DNA from: Acidobacteriota bacterium
GTDB taxonomy: Bacteria; Acidobacteriota; Thermoanaerobaculia; UBA5066
Reading direction: 5' to 3'
Assembly (NCBI GenBank): GCA_016716715.1
Contig: JADJVE010000019.1
Coordinates: 27,083 to 91,082 of the forward strand
Length of the DNA stretch: 64,000 nt
The position numbers and the translations under genes were made by a program. The notes under the pieces were generated by a model. It saw only the letters and a list, made by a program, of their open reading frames with translations, searched no databases and was not told where the DNA came from. The stretch's first letter is position 1; every line of letters starts with the position of its first letter. Below, piece by piece: positions 1,638 through 59,269 of this stretch.

Positions 1638-2733
1638 GCGGGAACTCCGAGGCCGATGCGCGCCCGCGCGTCCTGGCCGGTCTGAACCGCGGCGCACCAT
1701 TCCGGGTTGTCCACGTACCACCGCACCGTCCGAAGAAGACCTTCTTCGAATGAGTAAGAGGGCTCCACCCGAGGTCCGTGCGTATCTTGCTGGCGTCGAT
1801 CGCGTAGCGGCGGTCGTGCCCCGGCCGATCCTTGACGAACGTCTTCAAATCCCCGTATCCCCTCTTACCCTTCAAAGAACTCTTCTCCGAAATCTTCCGG
1901 TTCTCTACGAACGGAACGGTCTGCTCGAGCGCCGCACAGAGAGCGTCGACGATCTGCAGGTTCGTCCGCTCGTTGCCGCCGCCGATGTTGTACTTGCTCC
2001 CCGGCGCCGCCTTCTGGAGCACGAGCAGGATGCCGCGGCAGTGGTCCTCGACGTGCAGCCAGTCGCGGACGTTGCCGCCGTCGCCGTAGATCGGGAGCGG
2101 CTTGCCCTCGAGCGCGTTCAGGATCATGAGAGGGATGAGCTTCTCGGGGAACTGATTCGGCCCGTAGTTGTTCGAGCAGTTCGTGAGGAGCGTCGGGAGG
2201 CGGTACGTCTCGTGCCACGCACGGACGAGGTGGTCCGCGGCCGCCTTGGACGCGGCGTACGGCGAGTTCGGGGCGTACGGCGTCTCTTCCGAGAAGAGGC
2301 CCGTCGGCCCGAGCGTTCCGTAGACCTCGTCCGTCGAGACGTGAAGGAAACGGAAGGCCTCGCGCGCGGCCGGCGGGAGCGCCGCCGTGTGCGCCCGCGA
2401 CGCCTCGAGGAGGACGTACGTCCCCGTGACGTTCGTGTGGATGAAGGCGCCCGGGCCGTCGATCGAGCGGTCGACGTGCGTCTCGGCCGCGAAGTTCAGG
2501 ACGGCGCGGGGGCGGTGCTTTTCGAAGACGGCCTTCATGGCCGCGGCGTCCGCGATGTCGGCCTCGACGAAGGCGAAGCGGGGGTCTCTCTCGCAGTCGG
2601 CGAGGCTGGCCCGGTGCCCGGAGTACGTCAGCTTGTCGACGACGACCACGGGGCCGGAGGTTTCCTTCAGGGCGAGGCGGACGAAGTTCGAGCCGATGAA
2701 ACCGGCTCCGCCGGTGACGAGTATCGAGTCCAT
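1634..2733 (-). CDS. rfbB: dTDP-glucose 4,6-dehydratase carrying a single-base frameshift near 1750-1762 (sequencing error or pseudogene)
   Basis: N-terminus [19 protein letters not shown], a [15 protein letters not shown] active-site region and [16 protein letters not shown]. After ...DLGWSP the frame is lost and resumes one base over as [21 protein letters not shown], ending at TGA 1636..1634. One G/C of a homopolymer appears to be missing. Carries an approximately 39-nt in-frame AT-rich repeat copy (1861..1900, [16 protein letters not shown]). This frame is absent from the supplied ORF track. Confidence 0.8.
1861..1900 (+). repeat. AT-rich mini-repeat copy (in-frame insertion in rfbB)
   Basis: CCTCTTACCCTTCAAAGAACTCTTCTCCGAAATCTTCCGG. 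About 13 extra residues relative to typical RfbB. Confidence 0.5.
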
Positions 2734-4219: not shown

Positions 4220-4246
4220 AATGAGTTTCCTCTTGAGACTGATTCT

Positions 4247-7200: not shown

Positions 7201-7357
7201 GCTCCGCGCGTGCCTCGCGGCCGAGGCCCTCTCCGCTCTCGACCTCGACCTCATGGCGACGCGCGCCAGGGCGCTGCGTGCTCTCGGGCGCGACGCGGAG
7301 GCCGAGCGCGCCGAGCGCGAGCGGGCGCGTTGGGCGGGCGAGCCGCCCCCGCGCTGA
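4247..7357 (+). CDS. fused membrane/spermidine-synthase-like (polyamine aminopropyltransferase family) protein with a C-terminal TPR-like Ala/Arg-rich region
   Basis: N-terminal polytopic region (MTILLTACFFVSGAAGLAYEVLWSRHL...). A central spermidine-synthase-like fold (VLVVGFASGVTADAAARAPGVERVDVAELE...DVVLSEPSNLW). C-terminal repetitive helical region. Confidence 0.6.
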   Translation: MTILLTACFFVSGAAGLAYEVLWSRHLALLFGANAEAVGLVLAVFMSGLGLGSRAFGGLADRTRAPLRLYAALEAGIGVFALATGPLLAAVARAFPALAAALGGGPAATASAKAFLAALVLFPPAFLMGGTLPALARALAREAARAPRVVSLLYAVNLLGAVSGAALTGFWAVENAGLAATMGGAAAADFAVAAVAFVAASRLLAPPPVDAALSAPDPLSLLARAALFAGLFASGAVFMLDEVVFTRLLSLAFGVSSYSFTLVLVLCLLGLGIGGFAASARSARGPVTLAAFGRVQLASAAFAGAAMAAVPLVSRTILLARQVPGLGFGASLGLKAALAAALLLPLAAVAGAGMPLLLAFVAGRPGGVGTSVGRASLVNTAGTLAGSLATGFFLVSAFGSQTTLRLGALASLGAGLLALAAARGRPGAAAVSAAGALALGVLLVPRWPDWVFLRSDTYPRTPPAATRLEFEQRRRVANVERLFFEEGRNATVAVLQGPRTRTLVSNGHPEASDVGDMGTQVGVAIIPLVLHPAPRDVLVVGFASGVTADAAARAPGVERVDVAELETAMFRAAARFGHVNNGVLANPRVRLHPVDARSLIAAGGGRWDVVLSEPSNLWRAGVSNLFTADFYASARGALKKGGIFAQWLQLYGLRWETLRTVFATLVRSFPHTEVWWVDGGDVVLLGAESPIVASRAKAEAVLAGTYRDDLRRHLGTAEPAGFWARYLLGRDDLEALVAGVGRINTDDRPVVEFDAPRDLYQPGEDNAARLLEEKIARGRFSPPLSGPPPTRAETWAGLAGMYGVLGRPALARGAALRAFEDEPLGTYALRAARFALQDGAVADAEADLERARAAGVEPAKASDVEGRIRAAQGRIEEAVAAFARADTEGAPGLERLALLAIYGDETDALEQADRLLAARARGALAPGDAARAAEDLGRAARTPDVAARALDALERRIGSDAGVPRIPVLKARAALLVTAGRPAEALRACLAAEALSALDLDLMATRARALRALGRDAEAERAERERARWAGEPPPR

Positions 7358-7370
7358 TCAGGCCGCGTGG

Positions 7371-9224
7371 TCAGGCGGCGGCTTCGCGGTCCTTGAGCTG
7401 GAGCGCGTACAGGCGGGCGTAGAGCCCGCCCTTCTCGAGCAGCTCGGCATGCGTGCCGGACTCCTTCACCTCGCCGTGCGAGAGGACGAGGATCCGGTCG
7501 GCGCGCACGATCGTCGAGAGGCGGTGGGCGACGACGAGCGACGTGCGGCCCGCGAGGACGCGCTGCACGGCCCGCTCGATCGTCTTCTCCGTCTCCGGGT
7601 CGACCGAGGACGTCGCCTCGTCGAGGATCAGGATGCGCGGGTCTCGGGCGAGCGCGCGCGCGAACGAGACGAGCTGCTTTTCGCCGACCGAGAGGCCGCC
7701 GCCGCGCTCCGTGAGCTTCGCGTCGAGCCCGCCCGGGATCCGCGCGAGGAGCGGCCCGAGCCCGACCTCGCGGCAGGCCTCCTCGATCCGCGCGCGCGGC
7801 ATGTCGGGGTCGAAGAAAGAGACGTTTTCCGCGATCGTGCCCGTGAAGAGGAAGGTGTCCTGCAGGACGATTCCGAAGTGCTCGCGCAGCCGCACGGGGT
7901 GGTAGCGGCGGACGTCCTCGCCGTCGACGAGGACGCGGCCCGAGGTCACGTCGTAGAAGCGCAGCAGGACGTTCAGGATCGTGGACTTGCCGGCGCCCGT
8001 CGCGCCGACGAGCGCGACCGTCTGGCCCGGCGGCACGTGGAACGAGACGCCCTTGAGGATCTCCTCGCCCGCTTTATAGGAGAACCGCACGTCCTCGAAC
8101 GCGATCTCGCCGCGCAGCGGCCCGGCCGGGACGACGGGGTTTGCCGGGGCGGTGATCGCGGGCTGGGCGTCGAGAAGCTGGAAGATCCGCTCGGACGACG
8201 CCATCGCGGCCTGCAGGATGTTGTATTTCTCCGAGAGGTCCATGAGCGGCCGGTAGAAACGCTTGCTGTACTGGAGGAACGCGACGACGGCGCCGATCGT
8301 CATGTGCCCGCGCAGCACCTGCCAGCCGCCGTACCAGACGATGGAGGCCATGCCGAGCGCCGAGAGGAAGTCGAGCGCGGGGTAGAAGACCGAGTAGTAG
8401 AAGATCGACTCGATGTTCGCGACGCGGTGCGCGTCGTTGACCTCGGCGAACGCCTTCGCGGCGACGCGCTCGCGGCGGAAGAGCTGGACGATCGCGATTC
8501 CGGAGATGTGCTCCTGCAGGAACGCGTTCACGCGCGCGATCTTCACGCGCACGTCGCGGTAGGTGTCGCGCGCGCCCTTGCGGAACCAGTTCGTGACCCA
8601 GAGCATCGGGAGCAGGATCCCGAACGTGATCGCGGCGAGCGACGGATCGAGCGCGAAGAGGATGCCGACGATCCCGGCGAGCACGACGACGTCGCCGAGC
8701 AGCGCGACGAAGCCGGACGTGAAGAGCTCGTTCAGGGCGTCGACGTCCGTCGTGAGGCGCGTCATGAGCCGCCCGACGGGAGTCCGGTCGAAGACGGCGA
8801 CGTCCGCGCGCTGGAGGTGGCCGAAGATCCGCGTCCGGAGGTCGTACATGACGCCCTGGCCCATCGTGGACGTCCACCAGACCATGACCATCATGAGGAC
8901 GAACGCGAGGAGCGCCGTCGCGATGGAGAGGGCCGCGATCCACTCGATGCCGTGGCCGCCCGCGAGGTCGATCCCGAAGACGGCGAAGAAGCGGTCGACG
9001 CCCTTTGCGGCGGGCCCGGCGCCCGTGCGCTCGCGCGTGAGCACGAGGTCGATGGCGGCGGCCGTCAGGAGCGGGCCCGCGAGCTGCGCGAGGGACTCGA
9101 GGAGGAGCACCGCGAGCGAGCCCGCCGCGTAGGCACGGTACGGCTTCGCGAGGCCGAAGAGCCGGCGCAGGAGGCGCGGCTCGACGGCCTTCCCGAGGAC
9201 CTCTTCCTCGTGGTGGTCGGCCAT
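7371..9224 (-). CDS. ABC transporter permease/ATP-binding protein (exporter half-transporter, MsbA-like)
   Basis: Six-TM region followed by Walker A GATGAGKST, an LSVGEKQ signature and Walker B ILILDEATSSVD. Start MADHHEEEV at 9224 overlaps the upstream gene's stop. Confidence 0.85.
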   Translation of the reverse strand: MADHHEEEVLGKAVEPRLLRRLFGLAKPYRAYAAGSLAVLLLESLAQLAGPLLTAAAIDLVLTRERTGAGPAAKGVDRFFAVFGIDLAGGHGIEWIAALSIATALLAFVLMMVMVWWTSTMGQGVMYDLRTRIFGHLQRADVAVFDRTPVGRLMTRLTTDVDALNELFTSGFVALLGDVVVLAGIVGILFALDPSLAAITFGILLPMLWVTNWFRKGARDTYRDVRVKIARVNAFLQEHISGIAIVQLFRRERVAAKAFAEVNDAHRVANIESIFYYSVFYPALDFLSALGMASIVWYGGWQVLRGHMTIGAVVAFLQYSKRFYRPLMDLSEKYNILQAAMASSERIFQLLDAQPAITAPANPVVPAGPLRGEIAFEDVRFSYKAGEEILKGVSFHVPPGQTVALVGATGAGKSTILNVLLRFYDVTSGRVLVDGEDVRRYHPVRLREHFGIVLQDTFLFTGTIAENVSFFDPDMPRARIEEACREVGLGPLLARIPGGLDAKLTERGGGLSVGEKQLVSFARALARDPRILILDEATSSVDPETEKTIERAVQRVLAGRTSLVVAHRLSTIVRADRILVLSHGEVKESGTHAELLEKGGLYARLYALQLKDREAAA

Positions 9225-10951
9225 CAGGCGGCCTCCATCTCTTCGGCGAGGCGCTGGCGCTCGGCGATGGCGGCGTAGACGCCGCCCTTCGCGAGCAGCT
9301 CGTCGTGCGTGCCGGTCTCGGCGACCCGGCCGTGGTCGAGGACGACGAGGAAGTCCGCGTTGCGGAGCGTGGACAGGCGGTGCGAGACGAGAAAGACGGT
9401 TCTTCCCCCCGCGGCGGCGCGGAGGCCCTGGAGGATGCGAGCTTCCGTCTCCGTGTCGACGGAGGAGAGCGCGTCGTCGAGGACGAGGATCGGCGCATCC
9501 GACAGAAGCGCGCGCGCGAGCGCCGTGCGCTGCTTCTGGCCGCCCGAGAGCGTGATCCCGCGCTCGCCCACGATCGTGTCGAGGCCCTTCGGGAAGCGCG
9601 CGACGTCGGGCGCGAGGCCGGCTGCGAGGACGGCGGCCTCGACCTCGGAGCGCGAGGCGTCCGGCCTGGCGAACGCGACGTTCGAGGCGAGCGTGTCGGA
9701 GAAAAGGAACGTCTCCTGCGGGACGACGGCGATGCTCTTCCTGACGAGCGGGAGCGGCTCTTTCGAGAGGTCGCGCCCGCCGATGAAGACCGATCCCGCG
9801 GGCGGGTCGTCCACGCGCAGGAGGAGGTTCAGGAGCGTCGACTTGCCCGAGCCCGTGCGGCCGACGATCGCGACCGTGCTCCCCGCGGGAACGCGGAATG
9901 AGACGTCCTCGAGGACCGGCCGTTCGGCGTAGCTCCACGTGAGGTGCCGGAATTCCACGTCGCCCGCCAGCGGCGCACCGCCCTCGGCCTCCTCGGGAAG
10001 CGGAGCCGCCTCCCAGACGTCCATCATCCGGTTCCACGAGGCCGTACCGCGCTGCCAGAGGTTCACGACCCAGCCGAGCGCGATCGCGGGCCAGATGAGC
10101 TCCATCATGTAGAGGTTGAACTCGACGTAGCGTGCGACCGAGAGCTTGCCCGCGAGGATGAAGCGGCCGCCTGCCCACAGCGTGAGCGCGAAGCCGAGGC
10201 CGACGAGGAACTGCAGGAGCGGGAAGAACAGCGCGTTCAGCCGCGCGAGGCCGAGGTTGCGGCGCCGGAACTCGCGGTTGTTCGCGTCGAACCGCGCCGC
10301 CTCGCGCTCCTCGCGTGCGAACGCGCGCACCAGCCGCTGGCCCGTGAAGTTCTCCTGCGCCTCCGCGGAGATCTCGCTGAAGAACTCCTGGATCTTCGTG
10401 AAGCGCTTGTGCGTCGCCTGGCCCATGACCTTCGTCGCGATCGCGATCACCGGAAAGACGGCGAGCGCCACGCCCGTGAGCGCGGGCGACACCTGGAACA
10501 TGAGGACGAGCGACACCGTTCCGACGAGGAGCGTGTTGCCGGCCTGCATGATCCCGGGGCCGAGCAGCATCCGCACGGCCGAGAGGTCGTTGACGGCGCG
10601 GCTCATGAGGTCGCCGACGCGGTTCCGGCGGTACCAGACGGGCGGCAGGCGCAGAAGGTGCGCGAAGAGGTCCTGCCGCATCTCGTACTCGATGTCGCGC
10701 GAGGCGCCGATCAGGAGGCGGCGCGTCAGGAAGAGGGCGATCGCGTCGCCGACGGCGAGGAGGACGATGTACGCGGAGAGGCGGAAGAGGCGTTCCGACG
10801 TGACGCCGGTGCCCAGCTCCTCGATGGCGCGGCGGACGAGGCCCGGCATCGCGAGAAACAGGCCCGTCGAAGCGAGCATCGTCCCGAAGCCGGCGAGGTA
10901 CACCCCGGGCCGGCGGCGGAAATACGCGAGGAAACGGGGGAGGTCTCTCAT
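9224..10951 (-). CDS. ABC transporter permease/ATP-binding protein (partner half-transporter)
   Basis: Start MRDLPRFLAYFRRRPGVYLAG at 10951. Walker A GRTGSGKST, signature LSGGQKQR, Walker B LVLDDALSSVD. The upstream portion of the track ORF is antisense shadow. Confidence 0.85.
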   Translation of the reverse strand: MRDLPRFLAYFRRRPGVYLAGFGTMLASTGLFLAMPGLVRRAIEELGTGVTSERLFRLSAYIVLLAVGDAIALFLTRRLLIGASRDIEYEMRQDLFAHLLRLPPVWYRRNRVGDLMSRAVNDLSAVRMLLGPGIMQAGNTLLVGTVSLVLMFQVSPALTGVALAVFPVIAIATKVMGQATHKRFTKIQEFFSEISAEAQENFTGQRLVRAFAREEREAARFDANNREFRRRNLGLARLNALFFPLLQFLVGLGFALTLWAGGRFILAGKLSVARYVEFNLYMMELIWPAIALGWVVNLWQRGTASWNRMMDVWEAAPLPEEAEGGAPLAGDVEFRHLTWSYAERPVLEDVSFRVPAGSTVAIVGRTGSGKSTLLNLLLRVDDPPAGSVFIGGRDLSKEPLPLVRKSIAVVPQETFLFSDTLASNVAFARPDASRSEVEAAVLAAGLAPDVARFPKGLDTIVGERGITLSGGQKQRTALARALLSDAPILVLDDALSSVDTETEARILQGLRAAAGGRTVFLVSHRLSTLRNADFLVVLDHGRVAETGTHDELLAKGGVYAAIAERQRLAEEMEAA

Positions 10952-11009
10952 CCGGGAAAGAGAAGGCCGCGCAGCGCGCGGCCCGTTCTCCAGGTGCGAA
11001 TATACAGGA
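10952..11009. promoter_or_regulatory. divergent intergenic region between the ABC exporter operon and copA, containing an inverted repeat GCCGCGC-AGC-GCGCGGC
   Basis: A 58-nt gap between divergent starts. The dyad is visible by eye. Its function is not established. Confidence 0.25.
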
Positions 11010-11285
11010 ATGGAGCACGTCGATCCCGTCTGCGGCATGAAGGTCGATCCCGCCCGCGCCGCGGCGACGGTGCACTGGGGCGACAGGGACTGGTACTTCT
11101 GCGCGAAGAGCTGCGCGGAGAAATTCAGAAGAGACCCGGAAAGATTTTCTTTGAAAGTGAAGAGTGAAGAGTCGTTTGAGCCCATGACGTTTCCAGCAGG
11201 CATGGGCCTGCCGAGCCTGACGTTGCCCGCCGCGTCACCCGCGCCGATGGCCTCGCCGGCGCCTGCTGCCCTCTTCACCTTCTAA
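11010..11285 (+). CDS. copA: YHS/TRASH-type metal-binding domain, the N-terminal fragment of the copper ATPase, terminated by a TAA inside a repeat copy
   Basis: [46 protein letters not shown] is a YHS-domain signature. The frame ends at a TAA within CCTTCTAAGAAATC (11283..11285). Confidence 0.6.
11137..11172 (-). repeat. AT-rich mini-repeat copy (reverse orientation, inside the copA YHS fragment)
   Basis: CCGGAAAGATTTTCTTTGAAAGTGAAGAGTGAAGAG. Confidence 0.4.
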
Positions 11286-11316
11286 GAAATCTTCTCTTTC
11301 TTCTTCTTCCTCGAAG
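11271..11316 (+). repeat. AT-rich mini-repeat copy carrying an in-frame TAA that splits copA
   Basis: CTCTTCACCTTCTAAGAAATCTTCTCTTTCTTCTTCTTCCTCGAAG. Its length is 3n+1, consistent with the +1 frame change between the two copA parts. Confidence 0.55.
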
Positions 11317-11328
11317 TGGATCTGCCCG

Positions 11329-13431
11329 ATGGACCCCGAGGTGGTGTCGGACGTGCCGGCCGCGTGTCCGATCTGCGGGATGGCGCTGGAGCCGGCCGTC
11401 GCGACGGGAAATGAGGGAAATCCCGAGCTGGACGACATGGCGAAGCGTTTTCGCGTCGCGCTGGGGCTGACACTTCCGCTGTTTTTCTTCGAAATGAGCG
11501 CGATGGCCGGGCTGCGGCTCTTCGAAGGCGTCCCGCCGCGCCTCAACCTGCTCGTCCAGCTGGCCCTCGCAACCCCGGTCGTCCTCTGGTGCGGGAAGCC
11601 GTTCTTCGAGCGCGCCTGGCTTTCTCTGAAGACGCGGAACTTCAACATGTTCACGCTCATTGGCCTCGGGACCGGCGCGGCATACCTGTACAGCCTGGTC
11701 CGGACGGCGCAGGCCTTCTTACCCATTCAAAGAAATTCTTCTCTTCCTCTTCATTCCCCGGTTCATGACGTCTACTTCGAGGCCGCGGCCGGCATCGTCA
11801 CGCTCGTCCTCCTCGGGCAGGTCCTCGAGCTCCGCGCCCGCGCGAAAACCTCCGGGGCGATCCGCGAGCTGCTCGGCCTCGCGCCGGACACGGCGCGCGT
11901 CGTGCGGAAGGGCGCCGAGGTCGACGTCCCGCTCGACGAGGTCATGAAGGGCGACGTCCTGCGCGTGCGTCCCGGCGAGCGCGTGCCCGTGGACGGCGCC
12001 GTGACCGAGGGCGCGAGCGCCGTCGACGAGTCGATGCTCTCGGGCGAGCCGATGCCCGTCGAAGTGGGGCCCGGCGCGAAGGTGACGGGAGGGACGCTCA
12101 ACGGCACGGGCAGTTTCCTCATGCGCGCCGAGCGCGTGGGGGCCGACACCGTACTCGCGCGAATCGTCGCGCTCGTGGGCGAGGCGCAGCGCAGCCGCGC
12201 CCCCGTTCAGCGCCTCGCGGACCGCGTCGCGGGGATCTTCGTGCCCGCGGTCGTGGCGGCCGCGGCGGTCACGGCGCTCGCCTGGGGTATCTTCGGCCCC
12301 GAGCCGCGCCTTCCGCACGCGCTCGTGAACGCCGTCGCGGTCCTCATCATCGCGTGTCCGTGCGCCCTCGGTCTCGCGACGCCGATGTCCGTCATGGTCG
12401 GCATCGGCCGCGGCGCGAAGACGGGCGTCCTCTTCCGCGACGCGGCGGCGCTCGAGACGCTCGGGCAGTGCGACACGATGGTCCTCGACAAGACGGGGAC
12501 GCTCACGGAGGGGAAGCCGAAGATCGTGGAGACCCGCGCCTTCGGCGCATTCGATGAAAGTGAATTGCTGCGGCTGGCCGCTTCGCTGGAGCGCGCGAGC
12601 GAGCACCCCCTCGCGGCGGCCGTCACCGGGGCAGCCGAGGCCGCGGGCCTGACTCTTTCACCTTCAAAGGAATTCTCTTCTCTCCCAGGCAAGGGCATCC
12701 AGGGCAAGGTGGACGAACGCCACGTCCAGCTCGGTTCCCTTTCACTATTCGAAGAAGATCTTCAGCGGCGTTTCCCTCGCGAGATGCTGGAGGCAGCAGA
12801 CGAATGGAGGCGAAAGGCGGCCACGGTCCTCTTCGTCGCAGTCGACGGCCAGCCCGCGGGCTTCCTCGCCGCGGCCGACCCGCTCAAGGTTTCTGCGAAA
12901 GCCGCGATTACCGACCTGAAGGCGCTGGGTCTCCGCGTCGTCATGCTCACCGGCGACGCCGAGGCGACGGCTCGCGCCGTCGCTGCCGAGGCGGGAATCG
13001 AGGAGGTCGTGGCGGGCGTCCTGCCGGCCGGCAAGGCCGACGCCGTCGCGCGCCTGAAGGCGTCCGGCGCGCGCGTGGCGATGGCGGGAGACGGCGTGAA
13101 CGACGCGCCCGCGCTCGCGGGCGCGGACGTCGGGATCGCCATGGGGACCGGGTCGGACGTGGCAATCGAGAGCTCGTCGGCGACCCTCGTGGGCGGCGAC
13201 GTCGCCGCGCTCCCGAGGGCCGTGCGGCTCTCTCGCGCGACGCTCCGCAACATCCGGCAGAACCTGTTCTTCGCGTTCGTCTACAACGTCGTCGGCGTCC
13301 CCGTGGCCGCGGGCGTTCTCTACCCGGCCTTCGGCCTCCTCCTGTCGCCCGTACTCGCGAGCGCCGCGATGACGTTCAGCTCGCTCTCGGTCGTGGGAAA
13401 CGCGCTGCGCCTGCGGAGCGTCCGCCTCTAG
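11329..13431 (+). CDS. copA: copper-translocating P-type ATPase (core, 700 aa)
   Basis: [10 protein letters not shown] metal-binding motif. TM CPC motif [20 protein letters not shown] phosphorylation site, MLTGD, and a [11 protein letters not shown] hinge. The frame continues upstream of the ATG as KWICPM, so the gene was once fused to the YHS fragment. Confidence 0.85.
11714..11758 (+). repeat. AT-rich mini-repeat copy inside copA (in frame)
   Basis: CCTTCTTACCCATTCAAAGAAATTCTTCTCTTCCTCTTCATTCCCC. Confidence 0.45.
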
Positions 13432-13499
13432 ACGCCTGATTCCGGCGCATCATGGCCGCCGGCCCCCGGCCGAGCCGAAGCTGAACCCGGGGGTGTCCC

Positions 13500-14054
13500 A
13501 TGTCCATGACCCAGGCCGCGCTGCTGGTCGCCCTCTTCGCCCTCGTCGTAGGCGGCGTCGTGCTGCTGCGCACGTGGTGGGCGTGGAGGCAGAGACGCCT
13601 CATCACGTGCCCGGAAAACGAGCAGCCCGCGGCCGTGCGCGTGAGTGCGCTCGGCGCCGCGGCCGGCTCGCTGGCCGGACACCCGCACCTCAAGCTCTCG
13701 GAGTGCTCGCGCTGGCCCGAGAAGAAGGACTGCGGGCAGGAGTGCCTCCGCCAGATCGAGAGGGGGCCGGGCGAGTGCCTCGTGCGGACTCTCGTGGCGC
13801 GCTGGTACGAGGACAAGGGCTGTGTCTGCTGTGGCAAGCCGATTCACGACGTGGCGTGGGCGGACCAGCGTCCGGGTCTGCGCGCTCCGGACGGCGCATT
13901 CCTGGCATGGCCGGACGTGCCGCCCGAGGCGCTGCCCGAGCTCTTCAAGACGCACGCGCCGGTCTGCTGGAATTGCCTCGTCGTGCAGAAGGTCGCGCGC
14001 GATCACCCGGACGACGTGACGGTCCGCCCGCCGCGGGAGCAGCTGTACAGCTAG
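13500..14054 (+). CDS. membrane-anchored cysteine-rich hypothetical protein
   Basis: N-terminal TM helix (AALLVALFALVVGGVVLL) followed by about 10 Cys, including CVCCGKPIH and CWNC. Sits immediately downstream of copA. Confidence 0.5.
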   Translation: MSMTQAALLVALFALVVGGVVLLRTWWAWRQRRLITCPENEQPAAVRVSALGAAAGSLAGHPHLKLSECSRWPEKKDCGQECLRQIERGPGECLVRTLVARWYEDKGCVCCGKPIHDVAWADQRPGLRAPDGAFLAWPDVPPEALPELFKTHAPVCWNCLVVQKVARDHPDDVTVRPPREQLYS

Positions 14055-14117
14055 CCGGCCGGAAATTCCCTGCGAAATCCCGAGGACTTCCGCGTCCCCG
14101 GGCCCCACGTTTCGGTC

Positions 14118-14921
14118 ATGGGAGCCGTCCGCAAGCCGAACTTCGAGCTCTCGAAGTGGTACTTCGACGCGGTGGGGGATGACGGCGAGGTCTTCATCGG
14201 CTATCGCGCGAACCTGCGCTGGAGGCGGCTCGCGGTCTCGTACGCCGCGGCCCTGACCGGCGGGGCTCACGAGACGCGGACTGCGTCGATCATGAGGTCC
14301 GAACAGGAGCCGGTCCTGCGAACGGGCTCCCTCGCGTGGGCGGCGCCGGCGCTCGACATCGAGGGGACGTGGACTGCGGACGCGCCTGCGCTCCTTCGGA
14401 CGCTCTACGACTGCCCCGACGGGTCGGTCGTCTGGGCCTGCCTCTTCCCGCGCGCGCGGGCCGGCGTACGGATCGGTTCGCGCGAGATCCGCGGTTTCGG
14501 CTACGCCGAGCGCCTCGAGATGACGCTGCCGCCCTGGAGGCTGCCGCTCGAGACGCTGCGATGGGGGCGGTTCCTGTCTCCGGACCGGTTCGTCGTCTGG
14601 ATCGACTGGCAGGCGCCGGAACGCTCGCGCACGTGGGTGTTCGTGGACGGGATCGAAGCGCGGGAAGCGGGGGTTTCGGACGAAGAGATTTCTTTTGAAG
14701 GGGGAAGAATTCGGCTCCCTTCGGCGAGCCGGTTGTCGCTGCGCGCCGGCCGCGTCTCCGACCTTCTAAGAGATCTTCCTCTTTCTCTCCTTCTTCGTCT
14801 CTTTCGTCGCGCGCGCGCCGTCCACGAGACCAAGTGGCGGACGCGGGGCGTTCTCGAATGCTTCGGCGCGCCGGCCGTCGAGGGCTGGGCGATTCACGAA
14901 GTCGTGAGGTTCAGGACATGA
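14118..14921 (+). CDS. CrtC-like (hydroxyneurosporene synthase / carotenoid hydratase family) protein
   Basis: N-terminal SKWYFDAVGDDGEVFIGY resembles the CrtC family motif. Carries two AT-rich repeat copies near the C-terminus. Confidence 0.45.
   Translation: MGAVRKPNFELSKWYFDAVGDDGEVFIGYRANLRWRRLAVSYAAALTGGAHETRTASIMRSEQEPVLRTGSLAWAAPALDIEGTWTADAPALLRTLYDCPDGSVVWACLFPRARAGVRIGSREIRGFGYAERLEMTLPPWRLPLETLRWGRFLSPDRFVVWIDWQAPERSRTWVFVDGIEAREAGVSDEEISFEGGRIRLPSASRLSLRAGRVSDLLRDLPLSLLLRLFRRARAVHETKWRTRGVLECFGAPAVEGWAIHEVVRFRT
14761..14806 (+). repeat. AT-rich mini-repeat copy inside the CrtC-like gene
   Basis: ACCTTCTAAGAGATCTTCCTCTTTCTCTCCTTCTTCGTCTCTTTCG. Confidence 0.45.
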
Positions 14922-16837
14922 ACGAGCGTGCCGGGAAGGTCCTCTACGGTTCTCTCTTCGCCATCGTCCTCCCCGCCCTCCTCGTCCTCTGGGCGCGCGC
15001 GGCGGCGCCGAACGTGAGCCTGCCCGCCGTGGAGTCGCCGCTCGGCTGGGCCGCGGCGGCGGTGGGGCTCGCGCTCGTCCTCTGGGCGACGGCGGCCCTC
15101 GCGCTCTGGGGGCGCGGGCTCCCGATGAACGCGTACCCGCCGCCGGTCTTCGTCTCGCGCGGCCCGTACGCGCTCGTCGCCCATCCGATCTACCTCGGCT
15201 TCGTCGTCGCGTGCGCGGGCTGCGCGACAGGCGCGGGCTCGGCCGCGGGATTGTGGCTGGTGACTCCCGCGGCCGCCCTCGGCTCGGCGGCGCTCGTCCT
15301 CGGCTACGAAGCGCCCGACCTCGACGCGCGCTTCGGCAAGCGGCCGCGCCCTCTCCTCGGCCTGCCCGGCTGGGGCGGGGCGCGCCCGTCTCCGGCGGAC
15401 CGGCTCTCGGCGTTCGCTCTCGTCCTCCTGCCGTGGCTCGTCCTGTACGAGGCGGTGCAGGCGCTCGGCGTCGCGCCGGACGCGGTCGTGCTCCTCCTGC
15501 GCGGCGAGACCGCGTGGCCGGTGTGGGAGAGCACGGAGCTCGTCTACGCCTCGACGTACCTGTTCGTCGCGCTCGCGCCGCTCGCGGCAGCGACGCGCAC
15601 CGACCTCCGCCGCTTCATGGTGCGGGGATGGGCGGCGACGGCCCTGATCGTGTTCCTGTGGCTCGTTCTGCCGGTCGCGGCGCCGCCGCGGCCGTTCGAG
15701 CCGCAGGGACCGCTCGGCGCGCTCCTCGCGCTGGAGCGGCGCTTCGACTCGCCGGCCTGCGCGTTCCCGTCCTTCCACGTCGCGTGGGCGCTGCTCGCGG
15801 CGCCGGTCTGGGCGCGGCGGTTCGGGCGGGCAGGGGCGCTCGCGTGGGGTTGGGCCGCTGCGATCACCCTCAGCTGTGTCACGACCGGGATGCACACGGT
15901 GGCCGACGTCGCGGGCGGGATCGCCGCTGCGTTCCTCGTGTTCCGCCTGCCGGCCGTGTGGGAAGCGCTCCGAAGCGGCGCCGAACGCCTTGCAAACTCC
16001 TGGCGCGAGTGGAACTTCGGCTCGGTGCGCGTCATCAACCACGGCGGCTGGGCGGCGCTGGGGACGCTCGCCGGCGTCGGCCTCGCCGCGTCTCTCGCCG
16101 GGGAGGGCGCCGTGCCTGCCGTCCTGCTCGTCGCGTGCGCGGGTCTGGTCGGCGCGGGCCTCTGGGCGCAGTTCATCGAGGGCTCGCCGCGCCTCCTCCG
16201 GCCCTACGGGTATTACGGCGGCGTCCTCGGCGTCGTCCTCGGTTGCCTCGCGGCGCGCCTGACGCTCGGCGCCGACGCGTGGCTGCTCCTCGGAGCGTTC
16301 GCCGTCGCCGCCCCGTGGATCCAGGCGGCGGGGCGCGTGCGCTGCCTCGTGCAGGGCTGCTGCCACGGCGCGCCCGCATCGCCGGAGGTCGGGATCCGGT
16401 ACCTGCACGCGCGCTCGCGCGTCTGCCGCCTGTCCGATCTCGGCGGCGTCCCGCTGCACCCGACGCCGCTCTACTCGATCCTCTGGAACGTCGTGCCGGC
16501 GCTGCTCGGCGCGCGGCTCTGGGCGGCGCGCGCGCCGCTGCCCGTGATCGTCGGCGTGTACCTGCTTCTGACGGGGCTCGGCCGGTTCGTCGAAGAGTCC
16601 CGGCGCGGCGAGCCGCAGACGCCGGTTTTCGCGCGCCTGCGCCTCTACCAGTGGATCGCCGCGGGCACCGCCGCGGCAGGCGCCGTCGCCACGTGCATGG
16701 CTTCGACGGTCCCGACGCCCGCGCCGGATCCCTCGGCGGCCGCGTTCGCGGCGGGCGTGGCGTTCGCCGCGGCGACATGGTTCGCCCTCGGCGTCGACTT
16801 TCCGCGCTCGAACCGCCGCTTCGCGCGGCTGGTCTAG
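14918..16837 (+). CDS. polytopic membrane protein with a PAP2-phosphatase-like segment and an Lgt-like segment
   Basis: Start MNERAGKVLYGSLFAIVLPAL overlaps the previous stop (ATGA). The PSFHVAWALLAA motif is PAP2-like. GYYGGVLGVVLG...CLVQGCCHG is reminiscent of prolipoprotein diacylglyceryl transferase. Confidence 0.5.
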   Translation: MNERAGKVLYGSLFAIVLPALLVLWARAAAPNVSLPAVESPLGWAAAAVGLALVLWATAALALWGRGLPMNAYPPPVFVSRGPYALVAHPIYLGFVVACAGCATGAGSAAGLWLVTPAAALGSAALVLGYEAPDLDARFGKRPRPLLGLPGWGGARPSPADRLSAFALVLLPWLVLYEAVQALGVAPDAVVLLLRGETAWPVWESTELVYASTYLFVALAPLAAATRTDLRRFMVRGWAATALIVFLWLVLPVAAPPRPFEPQGPLGALLALERRFDSPACAFPSFHVAWALLAAPVWARRFGRAGALAWGWAAAITLSCVTTGMHTVADVAGGIAAAFLVFRLPAVWEALRSGAERLANSWREWNFGSVRVINHGGWAALGTLAGVGLAASLAGEGAVPAVLLVACAGLVGAGLWAQFIEGSPRLLRPYGYYGGVLGVVLGCLAARLTLGADAWLLLGAFAVAAPWIQAAGRVRCLVQGCCHGAPASPEVGIRYLHARSRVCRLSDLGGVPLHPTPLYSILWNVVPALLGARLWAARAPLPVIVGVYLLLTGLGRFVEESRRGEPQTPVFARLRLYQWIAAGTAAAGAVATCMASTVPTPAPDPSAAAFAAGVAFAAATWFALGVDFPRSNRRFARLV

Positions 16838-16856
16838 CGGCGGGAAGCGGGTCTTT

Positions 16857-17192
16857 TCAGCGCCCCTCGACCCCGAGCCAGCCGCGCGTGCCGTAGTCCG
16901 CGAGCAGGTTGACGAACAGGATGAGGAGCATGAAGAGGCCGGAGAAGATCACGGCGGGGATGAGCCGCGAGTTCTCCTTCACGTGCATGAAGTAGAGGAC
17001 GACGAGCGTCGCCTTCGCGATCGCGATCGCGAGCGCGACGGCGTTGTTCGCCCAGCCGAGGTCGACGTACGCCGCTCCGACCGTGGCCGCCGTGCCGACC
17101 ATGAGCGCGGCGAAGACGAGGAAGTACGTCGAGAGAGGCATCACGTGCGGGGCGTGAGCGGACGAGGCAGCGGAAGTCTCGGGATGCGCCAT
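16857..17192 (-). CDS. cytochrome c oxidase subunit IV (caa3-type small subunit)
   Basis: About 111 aa with two TM helices (PLSTYFLVFAALMVGTAATV... and LVVLYFMHVKE). Last gene of the cox operon. Its start overlaps the ctaE stop. Confidence 0.65.
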   Translation of the reverse strand: MAHPETSAASSAHAPHVMPLSTYFLVFAALMVGTAATVGAAYVDLGWANNAVALAIAIAKATLVVLYFMHVKENSRLIPAVIFSGLFMLLILFVNLLADYGTRGWLGVEGR

Positions 17193-17837
17193 CAGTGGTG
17201 CCGTCCGATGAGGTAGAGGAGCGGGAACAGGAAGATCCAGACGAGGTCCACGAAGTGCCAGTAGAGGCCGAAGCCCTCGAGGAAGTTGTGGTTCCGGGGC
17301 GTCCAGGCGCCGCGGAGGGCGGGCCGGAGCATGAAGGCGAGGATCGCGGCGCCGATGACCATGTGGAGGGCGTGGAGGCCCGTCATCCCGAAGTAGAGGC
17401 TGAAGAAGAGCTGCGCGTGCGGCGCGTCGGGCCCCTCGAAGTGGAAGGACGGGCCGGGCACGTGGTGGTGGGTGAACTTGTCGGCGTACTCGACCGCCTT
17501 CACGGCGAGGAACGTCGAGCCGAGGAGGAGCGTTCCGAGGAGCATCGCGAACGTCGTCTTCGGCTTGCCGGTCTGCCCGCCGCGCACGGCGAGCGCCATC
17601 GTGAGCGAGCTCCCGATGAGGACGGCCGTGTTGAACGCGCCGAGCCGGATGTCGAGCGAGTGGCTCGCGGCGCGAAACGCCTCGGGGTAGAGCGAGCGGT
17701 AGAGGCTGTACGCCGCGAAGAGCCCGCCGAAGAAGAGGATCTCCGTGACGAGGAACGTCCACATCCCGAGGGTCGCGGACTCCTTCTGCTGCTCGTAGCT
17801 GTCGAAGTGGTGGGCGAGGTCGGAGGGGCCGTGCGCG

Positions 17838-17848
<11 letters not shown>
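17192..17848 (-). CDS. ctaE: cytochrome c oxidase subunit III
   Basis: HHFDSYEQQ...[18 protein letters not shown]...HALHMVIG...[18 protein letters not shown] start at 17848. Confidence 0.9.
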
Positions 17849-19482
<1,634 letters not shown>

Positions 19483-19486
<4 letters not shown>

Positions 19487-35394: not shown

Positions 35395-37081
35395 ATGATT
35401 CGGAAGGCCCTGATCCTCTCGGCAACCGTCGCGGCTGCGGCCCTGCTCGCAGCGCCCCCTGCGGACGCCCGCAGCGCGGAAGTCCGCCGCGCCCTCGGGT
35501 GCCCCTCGCAAACGCTGGGATCCGTGGATGTTCCGGTCGACGGAGCGACGGTCAGCGGTTACGTGGTCGTCAAGGGATATGCGCTGGACGGCAACCTGGT
35601 GTCCAACGTCGATGTCTACGTTGACGGCACCGACGACGCGAACCGCGTCACGACGGCCGGCGGCGCGAACATCAACCTGCCCCGCCCCGACATCCTCCAG
35701 GCCTTCCCGCAGTACGCCGGCACGCCGGGCCAGAACCCCGGGTGGCTGGCGTCCTTCAAGGCGTCCAACTACTCGAACGGGTCGCACACGATCTACGTCG
35801 GGATCACGGACACGTCCGGCTGCACGTACTTCCTCGCGCCCAAGGCGATCAAGATCGACAACGCGAAGAACCAGGCGCCGTTCGGAAACATGGACTTCCC
35901 GCTCCCGAACAGCTCCGTGTCCGCCAACGGCGTCCTCACGGTCGTGGGCTGGGCGCTCGACGACCGCAAGGTCGACCACGTCGACGTTCTCGTCGACGGG
36001 CTTCTCGAGCGGCAGGCCGTCACGGGCGTCTACCGTGCCGACGTCGCCGCGAACTTCCCGGACAATCCGGCCGCGATCGTCGCGGGCTTCATCCTGAACG
36101 TCGACTCCACGCGTTACCCGAACGGCGTCCACACGGTCAGCGTCCGCGCCGTCGACGACCAGGGCCAGCAGGGCTTCCTCGGGACGTCGCGCGTGCAGGT
36201 TTTCAACAACGCCCCGAACACCGGCCCCTTCGGCGAGGTCGAATTCCCGCTCCTGAACGCAAACTGGTTCGGGAACTGCTTCCCGGTGTCGCCGGGCGGC
36301 CCGTCCGGCGGCCCGACGGACATCGTCGACCCGCGCATCCTCATGTTCGTCAACGGCTGGGCCCTCGAGGCCTCGCTCGAGAACACGGGCGGCGTCTCGG
36401 AAGTGCGCGTCGCGCTGGACGGCGTGCCGATCAAGAACTCGCGCGTGAACTGCCACCGCGAATTTCTCCTCGCGAACGCCCTGATCGACTGCTACGGGTA
36501 CTACCGTCCCGACATCGAGGTCTTGTATCCGGGCTTCGCGCAGGCGCCGAACGTCGGCTTCCAGTTCTTCGTCGACGCCGGCTACCTCCTCACGCAGAAG
36601 GGCTTCCGGGAGGGAGCGCACATCCTCCAGGTGTCGGCCGTCGACAAGCGGAACACCGCCGTCCTTCTGAAGGAAGTTCCGATCACGATGGAGTGCGCGA
36701 CGGGCCAGCTCGACCCGCCGCCGCTCGGCACCATCGACGATCCGACGAACTACAAGTTCATCGGCGGCGTGTTCCCGGTCATCGGCTGGGCGCTCGACCT
36801 CGACGTCGTCGTGAAGGTCCGCATCCTGATCGATGGCGTGGCGCAGGTCGACGCGGTCACGGGCGTGGACCGGGCCGACTACGGCTACGCGAGCCCGGAC
36901 GTCGCGGCCTCGTACCCGTTCTACCCGCAGCGCGCGAACGCGCTTCCGCTTCTACCTCGACACGACGAAGATCTCGAACTCCGAGCACGACCTCCTCATC
37001 GAGGTCACGGACGCGCGGGGCAACGTGCGCTCGGCCGGCACGCGCCGCTTCATCGTGGACAACAACACGCTCGTCCGCTAA
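35395..37081 (+). CDS. secreted protein with four tandem Ig-like/beta-sandwich repeats, with a frameshift near 36935-36950
   Basis: Signal peptide MIRKALILSATVAAAALLAAPPADA. Four repeats of about 100 aa (P(F)G..DFP...V.GWALD...V..V.V.VDG....V.G..RAD). The last repeat finishes in the +1 frame (...RFRFYLDTTKISNSEHDLLIEVTDARGNVRSAGTRRFIVDNNTLVR*, track ORF 36833..37081). Confidence 0.55.
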
Positions 37082-38761: not shown

Positions 38762-40305
38762 TCGTTCCGTCAGGGCTTGACCGGACCCTTGATGTCGGAC
38801 TTCTTCGCGAGCTGCATCTGCTCGTGGGCCGTCGCGAGCTTCTCGGCGTCGGGGAAAAGGGTGAGCGCCTTCTTGAGCTGGACGTCGTTCTCGAGGCTGG
38901 CGCGGTAACCCGCGTCGCGCCCGAATTTCGCCGTCAGCATCTCCTCGCGGATCGCGTGGTCGACGACGAGGGGATCCTTCTCCTCGGCGTAGATCGCCTT
39001 GGAGCCCTCGCGGGGACCGTCGGGTGCTTCGCGAGGTAGTCGACGGCGAACTCGAAGAAGGGCCGCGCGCGTAGAGCGTCGTCGCGAAGCGCTGAGGGGG
39101 CGCCTTCACGAGGACGTCGGGCGTGATGCCGCCGCCGCCGTAGACCGTCCGGCCCGCCGTCGGTCTTGAAGGAGTCCTTCTTCTGGAGGCGCGTCGCGGG
39201 CGGGGTCTCGTCGGCGTCGCCGCCCTCCTCGTCCTCGGGCGCCAGGTACTCGAGGACGTCCTTTGTAGTCGCGCTGGATGCAGCGGCCGGAGGGGGTGTA
39301 GTACTTCGCCGAGGTGAGCGCCAGGCCGGCGCCGTCGGGGAGGGTGAAGACCGACTGGACGAGTCCCTTGCCCCAGGAAGTCTGGCCCACGATGAGCCCG
39401 CGGTCGTGGTCCTGGATGGCCCCGGCGACGATCTCCGAGGCGGAGGCCGACCCCTTGTTGACGAGGACGACGAGCGGGATGCGGGCCTGGTTGTTCTTGC
39501 CGGGCGCGGCGAAGCTCTGCTCCGAGCGGCGTTCCGGCCGCGGGTCATGACGACCTCTCGTTGCGCGAAAGGAAGAAGTCCGACACGGCGATCGCCTGGT
39601 CGAGCAGGCCGCCCGGGTTTCCGCGCAGGTCGAACACGAGCTTCTTCATCCCCTGCTTCTCGAGCCTGTCCCAGTCCCCGGCCACCTCGGGCGCCGACGT
39701 GTGGGTGAAGTCCTTCAGGCGGATGTAGCCGACCTCGGGCTCGAGCATGAAGGCATAGGAGACGGAGTTCGTCGGGATCTCGGCGCGGGTGACCGTCATC
39801 TGGAGGGGCTCGGTGAGGCCCGGCCGGACGATGGTGATGTTGACCTTCGTGCCCTTCGGGCCCTTGAGCTTCTTGACGACCGCGTCGACGGGGAGGTCGT
39901 CGATTGATTGGCCTTCGACCTTGTCGATGACGTCGCCCGCGCGGATGCCGAGGCGGTCGGCCGGCGAGCCCTCGACCGGCGTGATGACCGTGACCTTCCC
40001 GTTGCGCTTGCTGATGATGATTCCGAGCCCGTAGAACGACCCGCGCTGCTTCTCCTGCATCGACGCTGTATTCCTCGGGCTCGAGGAAGTTCGTGTGCGG
40101 GTCGAGCGTGGAGAGCATCCCCTGGATCGACGAGTAGACGAGCTTGTCGGCGGCCACGTCGTCGGCGTACCAGGCGCGTGCCGTGGCGAGCAGGTCGGAG
40201 TACTCCTTGAACCGGGCTCGAGGCGTCCGAGCCGGCGAACAGCGCCCCCCGCGGCGCTGCCGAGGACGGTGACGGCGAGGAGGAACGGGACGGCGGCGGC
40301 TTCAC
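38762..40305 (-). pseudogene. ctpA: C-terminal processing (tail-specific, S41) peptidase ctpA disrupted by at least five frameshifts
   Basis: Recognisable segments lie in different frames: signal peptide AAAVPFLLAVTVLGSAAGG; FKEYSDLLATARAWYADDVAADKLVYSSIQGMLSTLDPHTNFLEPEEY; PDZ segment GLGIIISKRNGKVTVITPVEGSPADRLGIRAGDVI...FDLRGNPGG; [41 protein letters not shown]; and C-terminus ...KGPVKP*. Several joins sit at homopolymers (AA, CCCCCC). Confidence 0.7.
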
Positions 40306-55617: not shown

Positions 55618-55618
55618 G

Positions 55619-59240: not shown

Positions 59241-59250
59241 TTTCCAGAAC
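59219..59250 (+). repeat. AT-rich mini-repeat copy forming the 5' end (TTG start) of the DUF885 gene
   Basis: GCCCTCTTACCCTTCTAAGCAATTTCCAGAAC. Confidence 0.45.
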
Positions 59251-59269
59251 CTCCCGTCCTGTCTCTGCG

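Follow-up and report, generated by a model that had tools for sequence, protein, structure and literature searches.

The split copA gene of an Acidobacteriota contig is probably a consensus indel artefact

In the 64,000-nucleotide stretch of contig JADJVE010000019.1 analysed here (the window), a small YHS-domain protein and the core of a copper-translocating ATPase are encoded one after the other in different reading frames, and the stop codon that ends the first lies in a copy of a short dispersed repeat. This arrangement raises the question of whether copA has been broken by a repeat, whether the cell now produces a metal-binding domain and a transporter separately, or whether the sequence itself is in error. 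The comparisons described below point, with a probability of roughly 0.85, to a consensus indel artefact with no biology behind it. An indel error had been listed last in the original prediction and is the best-supported of its readings, as the orthologs are in frame and differ by 1 nt.

The sequence of events would be as follows. The organism would carry one ordinary copA encoding a YHS domain, a disordered Ser/Pro/Lys linker, an HMBD metal-binding domain and a Cu(I) P1B ATPase. A surplus base (or two missing bases) in 11255-11272 (Table 1) would cause the frame to be lost. Seven codons further on, the repeat, which encodes SPSKKS and holds a TAA in the shifted frame, would supply an apparent stop, and gene callers would report a 91-aa YHS protein and then restart the ATPase at the first ATG, which is the Met of the CPM motif.

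Table 1. Coordinates in the window of the copA parts, the putative lesion, the mini-repeat copies and the other frameshifts
Feature	Position	Strand	Remarks
copA (YHS, linker, HMBD, P1B-1 ATPase)	11010..13431	+	Single gene with a probable 1-nt frame error in the assembly
ORF1, YHS	11010..11285	+	91 aa; ATG 11010, TAA 11283-11285; frame pos%3=0
Left, inverted mini-repeat copy	11141..11169	-	In linker; weak nhmmer match; same sequence in L084
Zone of surplus nucleotide	11255..11272	+	Alignment with L084, L082 and L083; frame arithmetic
Right mini-repeat copy and TCT-rich serine tract	11268..11313	+	nhmmer E 1.5e-05; contains TAA 11283-11285
HMBD metal-binding domain (...CPICGMAL)	11314..11397	+	Pfam PF19335, profile 1-28/28; cut by the annotated start
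ORF2, ATPase core	11329..13431	+	700 aa; frame pos%3=1; MBK9064989.1
rfbB (dTDP-glucose 4,6-dehydratase) frameshift	1760..1762	-	One C missing in AGCCC^TCTTAC; three-frame translation
ctaD (COX1) frameshift	19034..19036	-	One C missing in ACGCCC^TCTCG
Ig-like repeat protein frameshift	36938..36944	+	2 nt of GCGCGC run absent; translation
ctp (S41 C-terminal processing peptidase)	39008..40215	-	Several frame changes, about 74 nt missing

One copper ATPase read in two frames

The first open reading frame contains the Pfam domain YHS (PF04945) at residues 3-46 (E 3.7e-11) and ends, in agreement with the coordinates first reported, at a TAA within the mini-repeat. Its last seven codons, read as PAALFTF, are an out-of-frame reading. 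It is exactly matched by the database protein MBK9064988.1 (P0121), encoded on a contig of 384,516 bp, which NCBI labels as a stand-alone 'YHS domain-containing protein', while ORF2 carries the label 'copper-translocating P-type ATPase' and is N-terminally truncated. The start of ORF2 was likewise confirmed to lie 43 nt (11286-11328) beyond the stop of ORF1, in the +1 frame and at the Met of the CPM motif. Its frame is open from 11221 and reads KWICPM across ATG 11329, the Met of CPMDPEV. No ATG, GTG or TTG occurs in this frame from 11221 to 11329, inspection by eye revealed no clear Shine-Dalgarno sequence ahead of ORF2, and no promoter-like site was found for it. Third-position GC passes from the frame of ORF1 to that of ORF2 at about 11270-11300.

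The predicted ATPase core has the features of a P1B-1 copper-exporting ATPase (CopA), scoring above the cutoffs of the NCBIfam models TIGR01511 (577.6, cutoff 397) and TIGR01525 (612.6, cutoff 346). Pfam detects an E1-E2 ATPase domain (PF00122, 5.6e-55) and a HAD hydrolase (PF00702, 8.7e-32), and the CPC transmembrane metal site, the DKTGT phosphorylation site and the GDGVNDAP hinge are all intact in the translation. As deposited, the N-terminal metal-binding domains are not continuous with this core, the YHS domain being in the other frame and the HMBD being cut at the ATG. The HMBD begins at K 11314, residue 19 of a translation started at 11260 and five codons upstream of the ATG, and a product initiated at ATG 11329 would be without its first Cys. 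Both domains are continuous with the ATPase core in all relatives.

The proposed origin of the two parts from a single gene is borne out by full-length relatives that span the whole conceptual fusion. The fusion of ORF1 and ORF2 aligns over 100% of its length with relatives of 784-823 aa at 80-87% identity, and tblastn with the CopA proteins of loci L084, L082, L081 and L107 gives two HSPs in the window, in frames +3 and +1. The YHS domain and KWICPM(D/H)PE share one frame at every related locus read at the DNA level (L081-L084, L092-L099 and L101-L108; the match at L100 is fortuitous, no copA gene being present there). One of these in-frame relatives is 97% identical to the window in the first part and 92% in the second. 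Compared with L084, the YHS part is identical at 70/72 positions and the ATPase at 92%, indicating that neither side of the shift has decayed. The surroundings are conserved as well, with a pair of oppositely oriented ABC exporters upstream and the 184-aa, 267-aa and PEMT/PAP2/LGT genes downstream. In domain order, catalytic motifs and synteny the locus is identical to the YHS-HMBD-P1B-1 Cu(I) ATPases of Acidobacteriota (Thermoanaerobaculia), from which it differs only by the frame error.

Database proteins beginning with MDPEVV or MHPEIV exist (P0009, P0011, P0012, P0013, P0017, P0023 and P0024), and orthologs starting at MDPEVV beside a separate YHS gene had been named as grounds for rejecting the original prediction. 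The DNA was fetched for P0009, P0011, P0013, P0023 and P0024, and 5/5 turned out to be gene-caller truncations of continuous ORFs. A recurrent split, considered on the basis of these relatives of ~700 aa, was rejected because the upstream DNA is in frame in all five. Their starts are called too far downstream because an over-long ABC exporter ORF on the opposite strand masks the YHS region, or because the genes have GTG or TTG starts. The suggestion that the cell expresses the YHS domain and the ATPase as naturally separate proteins also finds no support, since ORF2 has no start of its own ahead of a complete HMBD and the arrangement does not recur in any relative. Exact look-ups of the window ATPase, YHS ORF, ABC exporter and RfbA gave no match, a protein search with a junction-spanning query gave no same-strain fragment, and a pattern scan of genome contigs was dominated by generic MAGDGVND matches and returned only distant relatives.

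The surplus nucleotide and the mini-repeat

In the alignment with L084, L082 and L083, each relative has one gap of 1 nt opposite the window. MAFFT assigns the surplus base to T11264; alternatively, the C-run 11269-11271 has one C too many or two too few. The deposited junction reads GCGCCTGCTGCCCTCTTC (within 11240-11300). Versions one base shorter, for example GCGCCGCTGCCCTCTTC or GCTGCCTCTTC, or a version with two more C, would yield a continuous ORF, and once the surplus base is removed the window gives an 11-residue reading opposite PGPLPHSPSKK of L084. That the surplus base itself is wrong is an inference. The original prediction had ascribed both the TAA and the +1 frame change to the repeat copy. 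The TAA does lie inside the repeat core, but the surplus base is found 3-20 nt upstream of it.

The copy with TAA has TCACCTTCTAAGAAATCT (11275-11292) as its core, with 0 mismatches to the family, of which there are 9 copies at <=3 mismatches compared with 0 expected in shuffles. It forms an inverted repeat with the left copy, the arms 11146-11169 and 11266-11289 being 83% complementary. The repeat occupies the same copA position in the intact genes of L082, L083, L084, L105, L106, L107 and L108 (71-92% identity), where the TAA is out of frame and the in-frame reading is (H/S/Y)(S/A)PSKKS, or SLSKKS in the diverged copy of L105 (TCACTTTCTAAGAAATCT). The only exception is L081/L098, in which this position falls in a 60-nt in-frame deletion. 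The copy number of (TCT)n also varies, with a (TCT)3 difference between L082 and L083, and the right arm occurs without the left in P0008 and P0010. At a second copA site, in the N-domain, the repeat takes the place of a stretch of equal length and adds none.

Two candidate roles for the inverted arms were rejected. A MITE-like element (11141-11313) as the cause of the split is at odds with the presence of the arms in intact orthologs, and an inversion between the arms as a means of restoring the frame would leave the length unchanged. The window contains six inverted mini-repeat pairs with unrelated internal sequences, which, together with P0008, P0010 and the N-domain site, also counts against such an element. 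RNA folding of arm pairs gives modest z-scores (-2.5 and -1.6), and no Rfam families were found within the window.

The dispersed mini-repeat family is real and lineage-specific, lies in frame in many proteins and is an incidental supplier of the TAA. It resembles the Rickettsia palindromic elements and uptake-signal-like repeats in being short, lineage-specific, AT-rich and in frame in permissive protein parts, here linkers, post-signal-peptide segments and surface loops. It differs from these in that it is only about 24 nt long, its paired copies enclose unrelated sequence, and at one site it replaces a stretch of equal length rather than being inserted.

Other frameshifts in the window and the origin of the sequence

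Conserved genes in the same 64 kb are interrupted by no fewer than five other frameshifts, in rfbB, ctaD, the Ig-like repeat protein and ctp, the last at two or more sites. The rfbB frameshift adjoins another copy of the mini-repeat, and alignment of the corrected RfbB to PDB 1bxk and 1g1a runs through the junction. In ctaD, tblastn with the COX1 protein of L107 produces two HSPs of 98-99% identity, one in frame -1 and one in frame -3, which adjoin at 19034, and the corrected protein gives a single full Pfam COX1 match (1-436/436). At the Ig-like site the independent contigs L109 and L110, 99.5-99.65% identical, carry AACGCGCGCTTC and read straight through. The Pfam S41 profile in ctp is divided between two frames; in L112, a contig from run SRR11674022, ctp is one continuous ORF of 328 aa. 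L112 is 100% identical to the window up to 39008, beyond which identity falls to 90% with 13 gap openings. The same-strain short-read contigs L085 and L112 match the window at 100% identity for 1654 nt and 1257 nt, respectively. Judged against same-strain short-read contigs, the frameshifts of the window are assembly-specific at the ctp and Ig-like sites. The rfbB, copA and ctaD shifts all sit at GCCCTCT, but a shared recoding signal was rejected because the majority of GCCCTCT occurrences across the window keep the frame, the shift directions differ and two more shifts fall at other sequences.

Because the contig has many other single-base frameshifts, some of them assembly-specific, a technical origin is the simpler account of the copA split. 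The source MAG is probably a Nanopore-based population bin. The accession block of MBK9064988.1/MBK9064989.1 is presumably that of the activated-sludge MAGs of Singleton et al., and the occurrence of the window strain in run SRR11674022 provides the second leg of the link to the Nanopore project. The strain is also present at 100% identity in runs SRR30574916/922/938/940/958/978. The activated-sludge MAGs were built from Nanopore reads using CANU, Racon, medaka and one Illumina Racon round (PMC8012365) and have been termed population bins, not strains (PMC9765116). The likely cause of the lesion is a Nanopore consensus with incomplete short-read polishing, and errors in a long-read population bin could persist beside a repeat present in several copies and a (TCT)n tract of variable length.

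The window shares several features with known indel artefacts of Nanopore MAGs. Conserved genes are split by 1- or 2-nt indels, several on the contig, some of these lie in short runs of C or in a run of GC dinucleotides, the halves are annotated separately, and the ctp and Ig-like indels are missing from same-strain short-read assemblies. Some observations count against an artefact. The independent contigs cover sites other than 11255-11272. Homopolymers are the commonest site of Nanopore errors, whereas T11264, the most parsimonious placement of the copA base, is not in a homopolymer. In addition, of the 16 genes of L107 that tblastn matches within the window (2900-21685), 14 are in a single frame, and the contig is therefore mostly well polished. 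Homopolymer run-length statistics of the window are normal.

Alternative readings and their implications

A genuine, very recent 1-nt insertion in the strain or a subpopulation is unlikely. It would make copA either a newly formed pseudogene or a gene that works in two pieces. In the second case the 91-aa YHS protein would be followed by reinitiation at ATG 11329, 43 nt past TAA 11283, a gap short enough to permit it. The ATPase made in this way would have a damaged HMBD but may retain Cu(I) pumping, as the N-terminal metal-binding domains of P1B ATPases are regulatory and dispensable for transport. The deposited sequence shows the insertion, and the linker is a mutational hot spot among relatives, where L082 and L083 differ by (TCT)3 and L081 has a 60-nt in-frame deletion. 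However, the allele is present in one assembly only (cluster size 1, one contig) and neither part has decayed. Signs of adaptation are absent, with no clear Shine-Dalgarno sequence, no promoter-like site and an HMBD cut before its first Cys, and the contig has many other single-base frameshifts (in ctaD and rfbB, for example), at least some of which are specific to the assembly.

It is very improbable that the surplus base is real and leads to two copA products, a free 91-aa YHS copper-binding protein and a transporter obtained by reinitiation at the Met of CPM or by stop-stimulated +1 slippage at UUC-UAA-G, the latter giving back a full-length CopA that is nearly normal. Programmed +1 recoding, in which most ribosomes stop at UUC-UAA-G to give a chaperone-like YHS protein and a fraction slip to give full CopA, is more doubtful still. 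The +1 frame does continue past UUC UAA G, and the resulting fusion would differ from the orthologs by about 7 linker residues. There is also a precedent for two copA products in E. coli, where, in the account of Meydan et al. 2017 cited in PMC6747150, -1 frameshifting generates the CopA(Z) chaperone. As far as that account goes, both are copA genes that could yield a short N-terminal metal-binding protein as well as the transporter through a frame change after the first metal-binding domain. In E. coli, however, the zero frame gives the full transporter and the -1 shift occurs on a conserved slippery heptamer, whereas the zero frame of the window copA gives only the small protein, a +1 shift is needed, no slippery or stimulatory signal is present and no relative is alike. 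The frameshift site is not conserved, every relative being in frame; GCC CTC TTC ACC TTC TAA G has no GGAGG-like element or other Shine-Dalgarno-like stimulator upstream; and re-pairing of tRNA-Phe from UUC to UCU is poor. Furthermore, the other shifts in the window need -1 or +2 in unrelated contexts, and those in ctp and the Ig-like gene are gone from independent assemblies.

Insertion of a mobile mini-repeat as the source of both TAA and frame change is scarcely credible. In its favour, the dispersed repeat is real and the TAA falls in one of its copies, the linker is flanked by two copies in inverted orientation and L081 is without the right-hand copy. Against it, intact orthologs hold the repeat at the same position in frame, and the surplus base falls outside the repeat core, so that the repeat does not account for the frame change; L081 differs by a clean in-frame indel of 60 nt, unlike the lesion in the window, and at the other copA site the repeat replaces a stretch of equal length. 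The headline of the original prediction, that a repeat copy with TAA had split copA, is refuted by L082-L084 and L105-L108, which are intact with the repeat in frame.

The split of copA is thus very probably not a real feature, and its main value is as a caution. Both halves are already in public databases as separate proteins, and annotations such as MBK9064988.1/MBK9064989.1 can seed false families of split metal pumps. An artefact of this kind can be recognised even without access to the reads when orthologs keep a single frame, the gene is undecayed both before and after the shift, several housekeeping genes of the contig are interrupted by further single-base frameshifts and same-strain short-read contigs are clean. 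Were the surplus base real, copA would add one modest example of a gene recently inactivated or split. A true two-product copA would be the E. coli CopA(Z) case in reverse, with the TAA hidden in the mini-repeat as the site of termination or shift. The lineage-specific mini-repeat is a more interesting object than the copA split.

The split copA locus and its orthologs

As deposited, copA consists of two open reading frames. ORF1 encodes 91 aa from an ATG at 11010 to a TAA at 11283-11285, with a YHS domain in residues 3-46 (Pfam, E 3.7e-11). ORF2 encodes a 700-aa copper-type P1B ATPase (TIGR01511 score 577.6 against a cutoff of 397) whose CPC, DKTGT and GDGVNDAP motifs are all intact in translation; it begins at an ATG at 11329, 43 nt past the ORF1 stop and in the +1 frame. 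This layout confirms the original prediction, and so does the TAA, which falls inside a copy of the dispersed motif TCACCTTCWAAGAAATCT that has no mismatch. From 11221 the ATPase frame stays open, with no start codon until the one at 11329; third-position GC switches frame at about 11270-11300. The full-length Pfam match to the HMBD begins at the lysine at 11314, so initiation at the annotated ATG would truncate this domain and cost it its first Cys. ORF1 and ORF2 are identical to NCBI MBK9064988.1 (YHS domain-containing protein) and MBK9064989.1 (copper-translocating P-type ATPase), which lie on one MAG contig of 384,516 bp. The 91-aa YHS protein forms a singleton cluster found on one contig. 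The copA start has GAATATACAGGA just upstream and no spaced Shine-Dalgarno (SD) sequence (10990-11012); its mRNA may be leaderless or have a very short leader. A strong GC hairpin lies between the divergent genes upstream of copA.

A conceptual ORF1-ORF2 fusion matches Thermoanaerobaculia proteins of 784-823 aa over 100% of the query at 80-87% identity. The architecture of these full-length orthologs is YHS-HMBD-ATPase, which bears out the earlier proposal that the two parts were formerly one gene. In the database, a number of ~700-aa proteins begin exactly at MDPEVV or MHPEIV, a start that could be taken as a sign of naturally separate genes. In the DNA fetched for five of them (P0009, P0011, P0013, P0023 and P0024), the YHS domain precedes the called start without any stop or change of frame in every case; they are truncated gene calls of a continuous frame, and a natural split is rejected. 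Similarly truncated calls occur in the window's neighbourhood in relatives. An opposite-strand ABC exporter ORF is open across the YHS region in the window and likewise in the related loci L081, L082 and L084. Over-extension of this call truncates copA to MDPEVV and accounts for many '700-aa' public CopA entries.

Searching JGI metagenome contigs for AAGTGGATCTGCCCGATGGA gave 13 loci. One of them (L100) was a chance match with no copA gene; all that encode copA run from YHS straight into KWICPMDPE in one frame. Synteny is kept, with two ABC exporters on the other strand, copA, genes for 184-aa and ~267-aa proteins, and PEMT/PAP2/LGT genes. A pattern scan of genome contigs returned distant relatives only, exact look-ups of four window proteins gave no match, and a junction-spanning protein query found no same-strain fragment. 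Six of the seven Logan contigs with the 184-aa neighbour gene begin at 13259/13260, inside the copA 3' end, pointing to a k-mer immediately upstream that varies between strains or is repeated; the seventh (L091) begins at 13484.

Position of the copA lesion

When the linker DNA was aligned (MAFFT) with the related loci L084, L082 and L083, exactly one surplus nucleotide appeared in the window. L084 is 97% and 92% identical to the window in the two protein parts. MAFFT places the surplus base at T11264 (GCGCC-T-GCTGCC), without which the window translation is comparable to ...MASPGPLPHSPSKKSP... of L084; by frame arithmetic, the run at 11269-11271 could equally have gained one C or lost two. 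Under either placement the lesion lies upstream of the repeat core. At the same site L082, L083, L084, L106, L107 and L108 carry TCACCTTCTAAGA(A/G)(A/G)TC (GCACC... in L107/L108), translated as (H/S/Y)(S/A)PSKKS in a frame that does not contain the TAA; the copy in L105, TCACTTTCTAAGAAATCT, has diverged further and gives SLSKKS. Judged from these alignments, the repeat in the linker is native coding sequence. The frame error merely uncovers the mini-repeat TAA seven codons downstream. In the serine tract aligned to 11290-11310, L082 and L083 (one species, two samples) show a (TCT)3 difference, and L081/L098 have a clean 60-nt in-frame deletion that includes the right repeat copy. The linker is a length-variable microsatellite region, and a length-variable serine tract beside a multi-copy repeat is a plausible spot for consensus error.

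Other frameshifts and the origin of the split

With tblastn of syntenic genes from the related locus L107, 14 of 16 matching genes are single-frame; copA and ctaD are split. The two ctaD (COX1) pieces match L107 at 99.3% and 98.0% identity and meet at 19034, and one added C yields a single full-length Pfam COX1 match. Corrected RfbB aligns through its junction to the E. coli and Salmonella RmlB structures (1bxk and 1g1a). At the Ig-like gene, two independent short-read Logan contigs of the same strain, L109 and L110 (99.5-99.65% identical), carry AACGCGCGCTTC versus AACGCGCTTC in the window, and their protein reads straight through, ...YPFYPQRANARFRFYLDTTK.... In ctp, S41 Pfam profile positions 2-58 and 69-156 fall in different frames. 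Run SRR11674022 supplied the same-strain Logan contigs L085 and L112, which match the window at 100% identity over 1654 nt and 1257 nt, respectively. L112 keeps this identity up to 39008; beyond that point it differs from the window by 13 gap openings at 90% identity, with about 74 extra nt, and encodes one continuous 328-aa Ctp C-terminus. The ctp stretch is locally unpolished or chimeric assembly. Since independent contigs are continuous at the Ig-like and ctp sites, the window frameshifts there are assembly-specific. The gene pair directly downstream of ctp, for a ribbon-helix-helix antitoxin and a ParE toxin, has identical copies in six Logan contigs. Elsewhere in the window, a gene for an MbnB/TglH/ChrH-family RiPP-modification enzyme (Pfam 1.2e-59) adjoins a GNAT acetyltransferase gene, and this region may be a RiPP biosynthetic locus.

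Features of the window by position
Feature	Position	Strand	Remark
rfbB (dTDP-glucose 4,6-dehydratase) frameshift	1760-1762	-	one C missing, AGCCC^TCTTAC; mini-repeat edge
ABC exporter ORF	9224-11278	-	open across YHS region
GC hairpin	10964-10984		strong
ctaD frameshift	19034-19036	-	one C missing, ACGCCC^TCTCG
Large secreted Ig-like repeat protein, frame change	~36938-36944 (~36943)	+	2 nt missing from GCGCGC run
Antitoxin/ParE pair	38242-38713	-	
ctp (S41 peptidase with PDZ)	39008-40215	-	about six frame changes; ~74 nt missing at 39008 versus L112
RiPP-modification enzyme gene	54082-55743	-	
Mini-repeat copies	1863-1897; 11268-11313; 11710-11760; 12649-12685; 12733-12765; 14756-14796; 22990-23038; 29974-30002; 50615-50651; 59220-59252; 60294-60328		
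Mini-repeat copies	11141-11169; 14680-14713; 22905-22940; 50462-50513; 54817-54835; 59098-59116; 60188-60234	-	

The copA split is most probably a consensus indel artefact (probability about 0.85), the one of the originally proposed readings best supported by the frameshifts elsewhere in the window and by the in-frame orthologs. The accession block of MBK9064988.1/MBK9064989.1 is presumably that of the activated-sludge MAGs of Singleton et al. 2021, a set that includes Thermoanaerobaculia MAGs. These activated-sludge MAGs were built from Nanopore reads with CANU, Racon, two medaka rounds and one Illumina Racon round (PMC8012365) and are population bins, not strains (PMC9765116). A genuine recent frameshift, giving either a fresh pseudogene or a split gene reinitiating at ATG 11329, is unlikely: no decay is seen in either copA half, and the other window shifts are assembly-specific where contigs cover them. 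Nor does ORF2 show signs of being adapted to expression on its own: no promoter-like site was found for it, no clear SD is visible by eye and its HMBD, as called, is truncated. Far less probable is programmed +1 recoding at UUC-UAA-G, which would mirror, in reverse, E. coli CopA(Z), a precedent credited to Meydan 2017 in PMC6747150. Least credible is that a repeat copy carrying the TAA and the frame change inserted into copA, a reading refuted by intact orthologs with the same repeat in frame at the same site and by a lesion upstream of the core.

The mini-repeat family

The mini-repeat (consensus about CTCTTCACCTTC(T/A)AAGAAATCTTC) is genuine, a dispersed repeat specific to this lineage. Nine copies at <=3 mismatches occur in the window versus 0 in 100 shuffles, and among the fetched loci nhmmer finds it in those of this Thermoanaerobaculia clade only, with none in ~80 other loci (~600 kb). 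Its copies are AT-rich rare-codon islands in a genome of 70% GC and ~90% third-position GC. Most lie in linkers, surface loops or segments following signal peptides and are read in frame there, for example as SPSKKS (copA linker), LSPSKEFSS (N-domain) and HSPSKNSS after a lipobox; in RfbB, one such copy forms a 10-aa loop that is an insertion when compared with the E. coli protein. The CCC-TCT edge of a copy is where the rfbB and copA frameshifts both fall. Copies are often arranged as inverted pairs; the window has six, with 45-100 nt between the partners and spacers unrelated to one another. The inverted arms fold only modestly better than shuffles, and an Rfam search of the window gave no match. 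The copA N-domain copy (12652-12680) is equal in length to a GC-rich stretch, LALTAATEFKAS, in L107, and the more distant L105 and L106 have the mini-repeat at this site. Such equal-length replacement argues for conversion-like spread rather than transposition; at this site the motif spreads or persists by replacement and not by insertion. The mini-repeat may act as an uptake-signal-like sequence, a protein- or RNA-binding site, or a methylation target.
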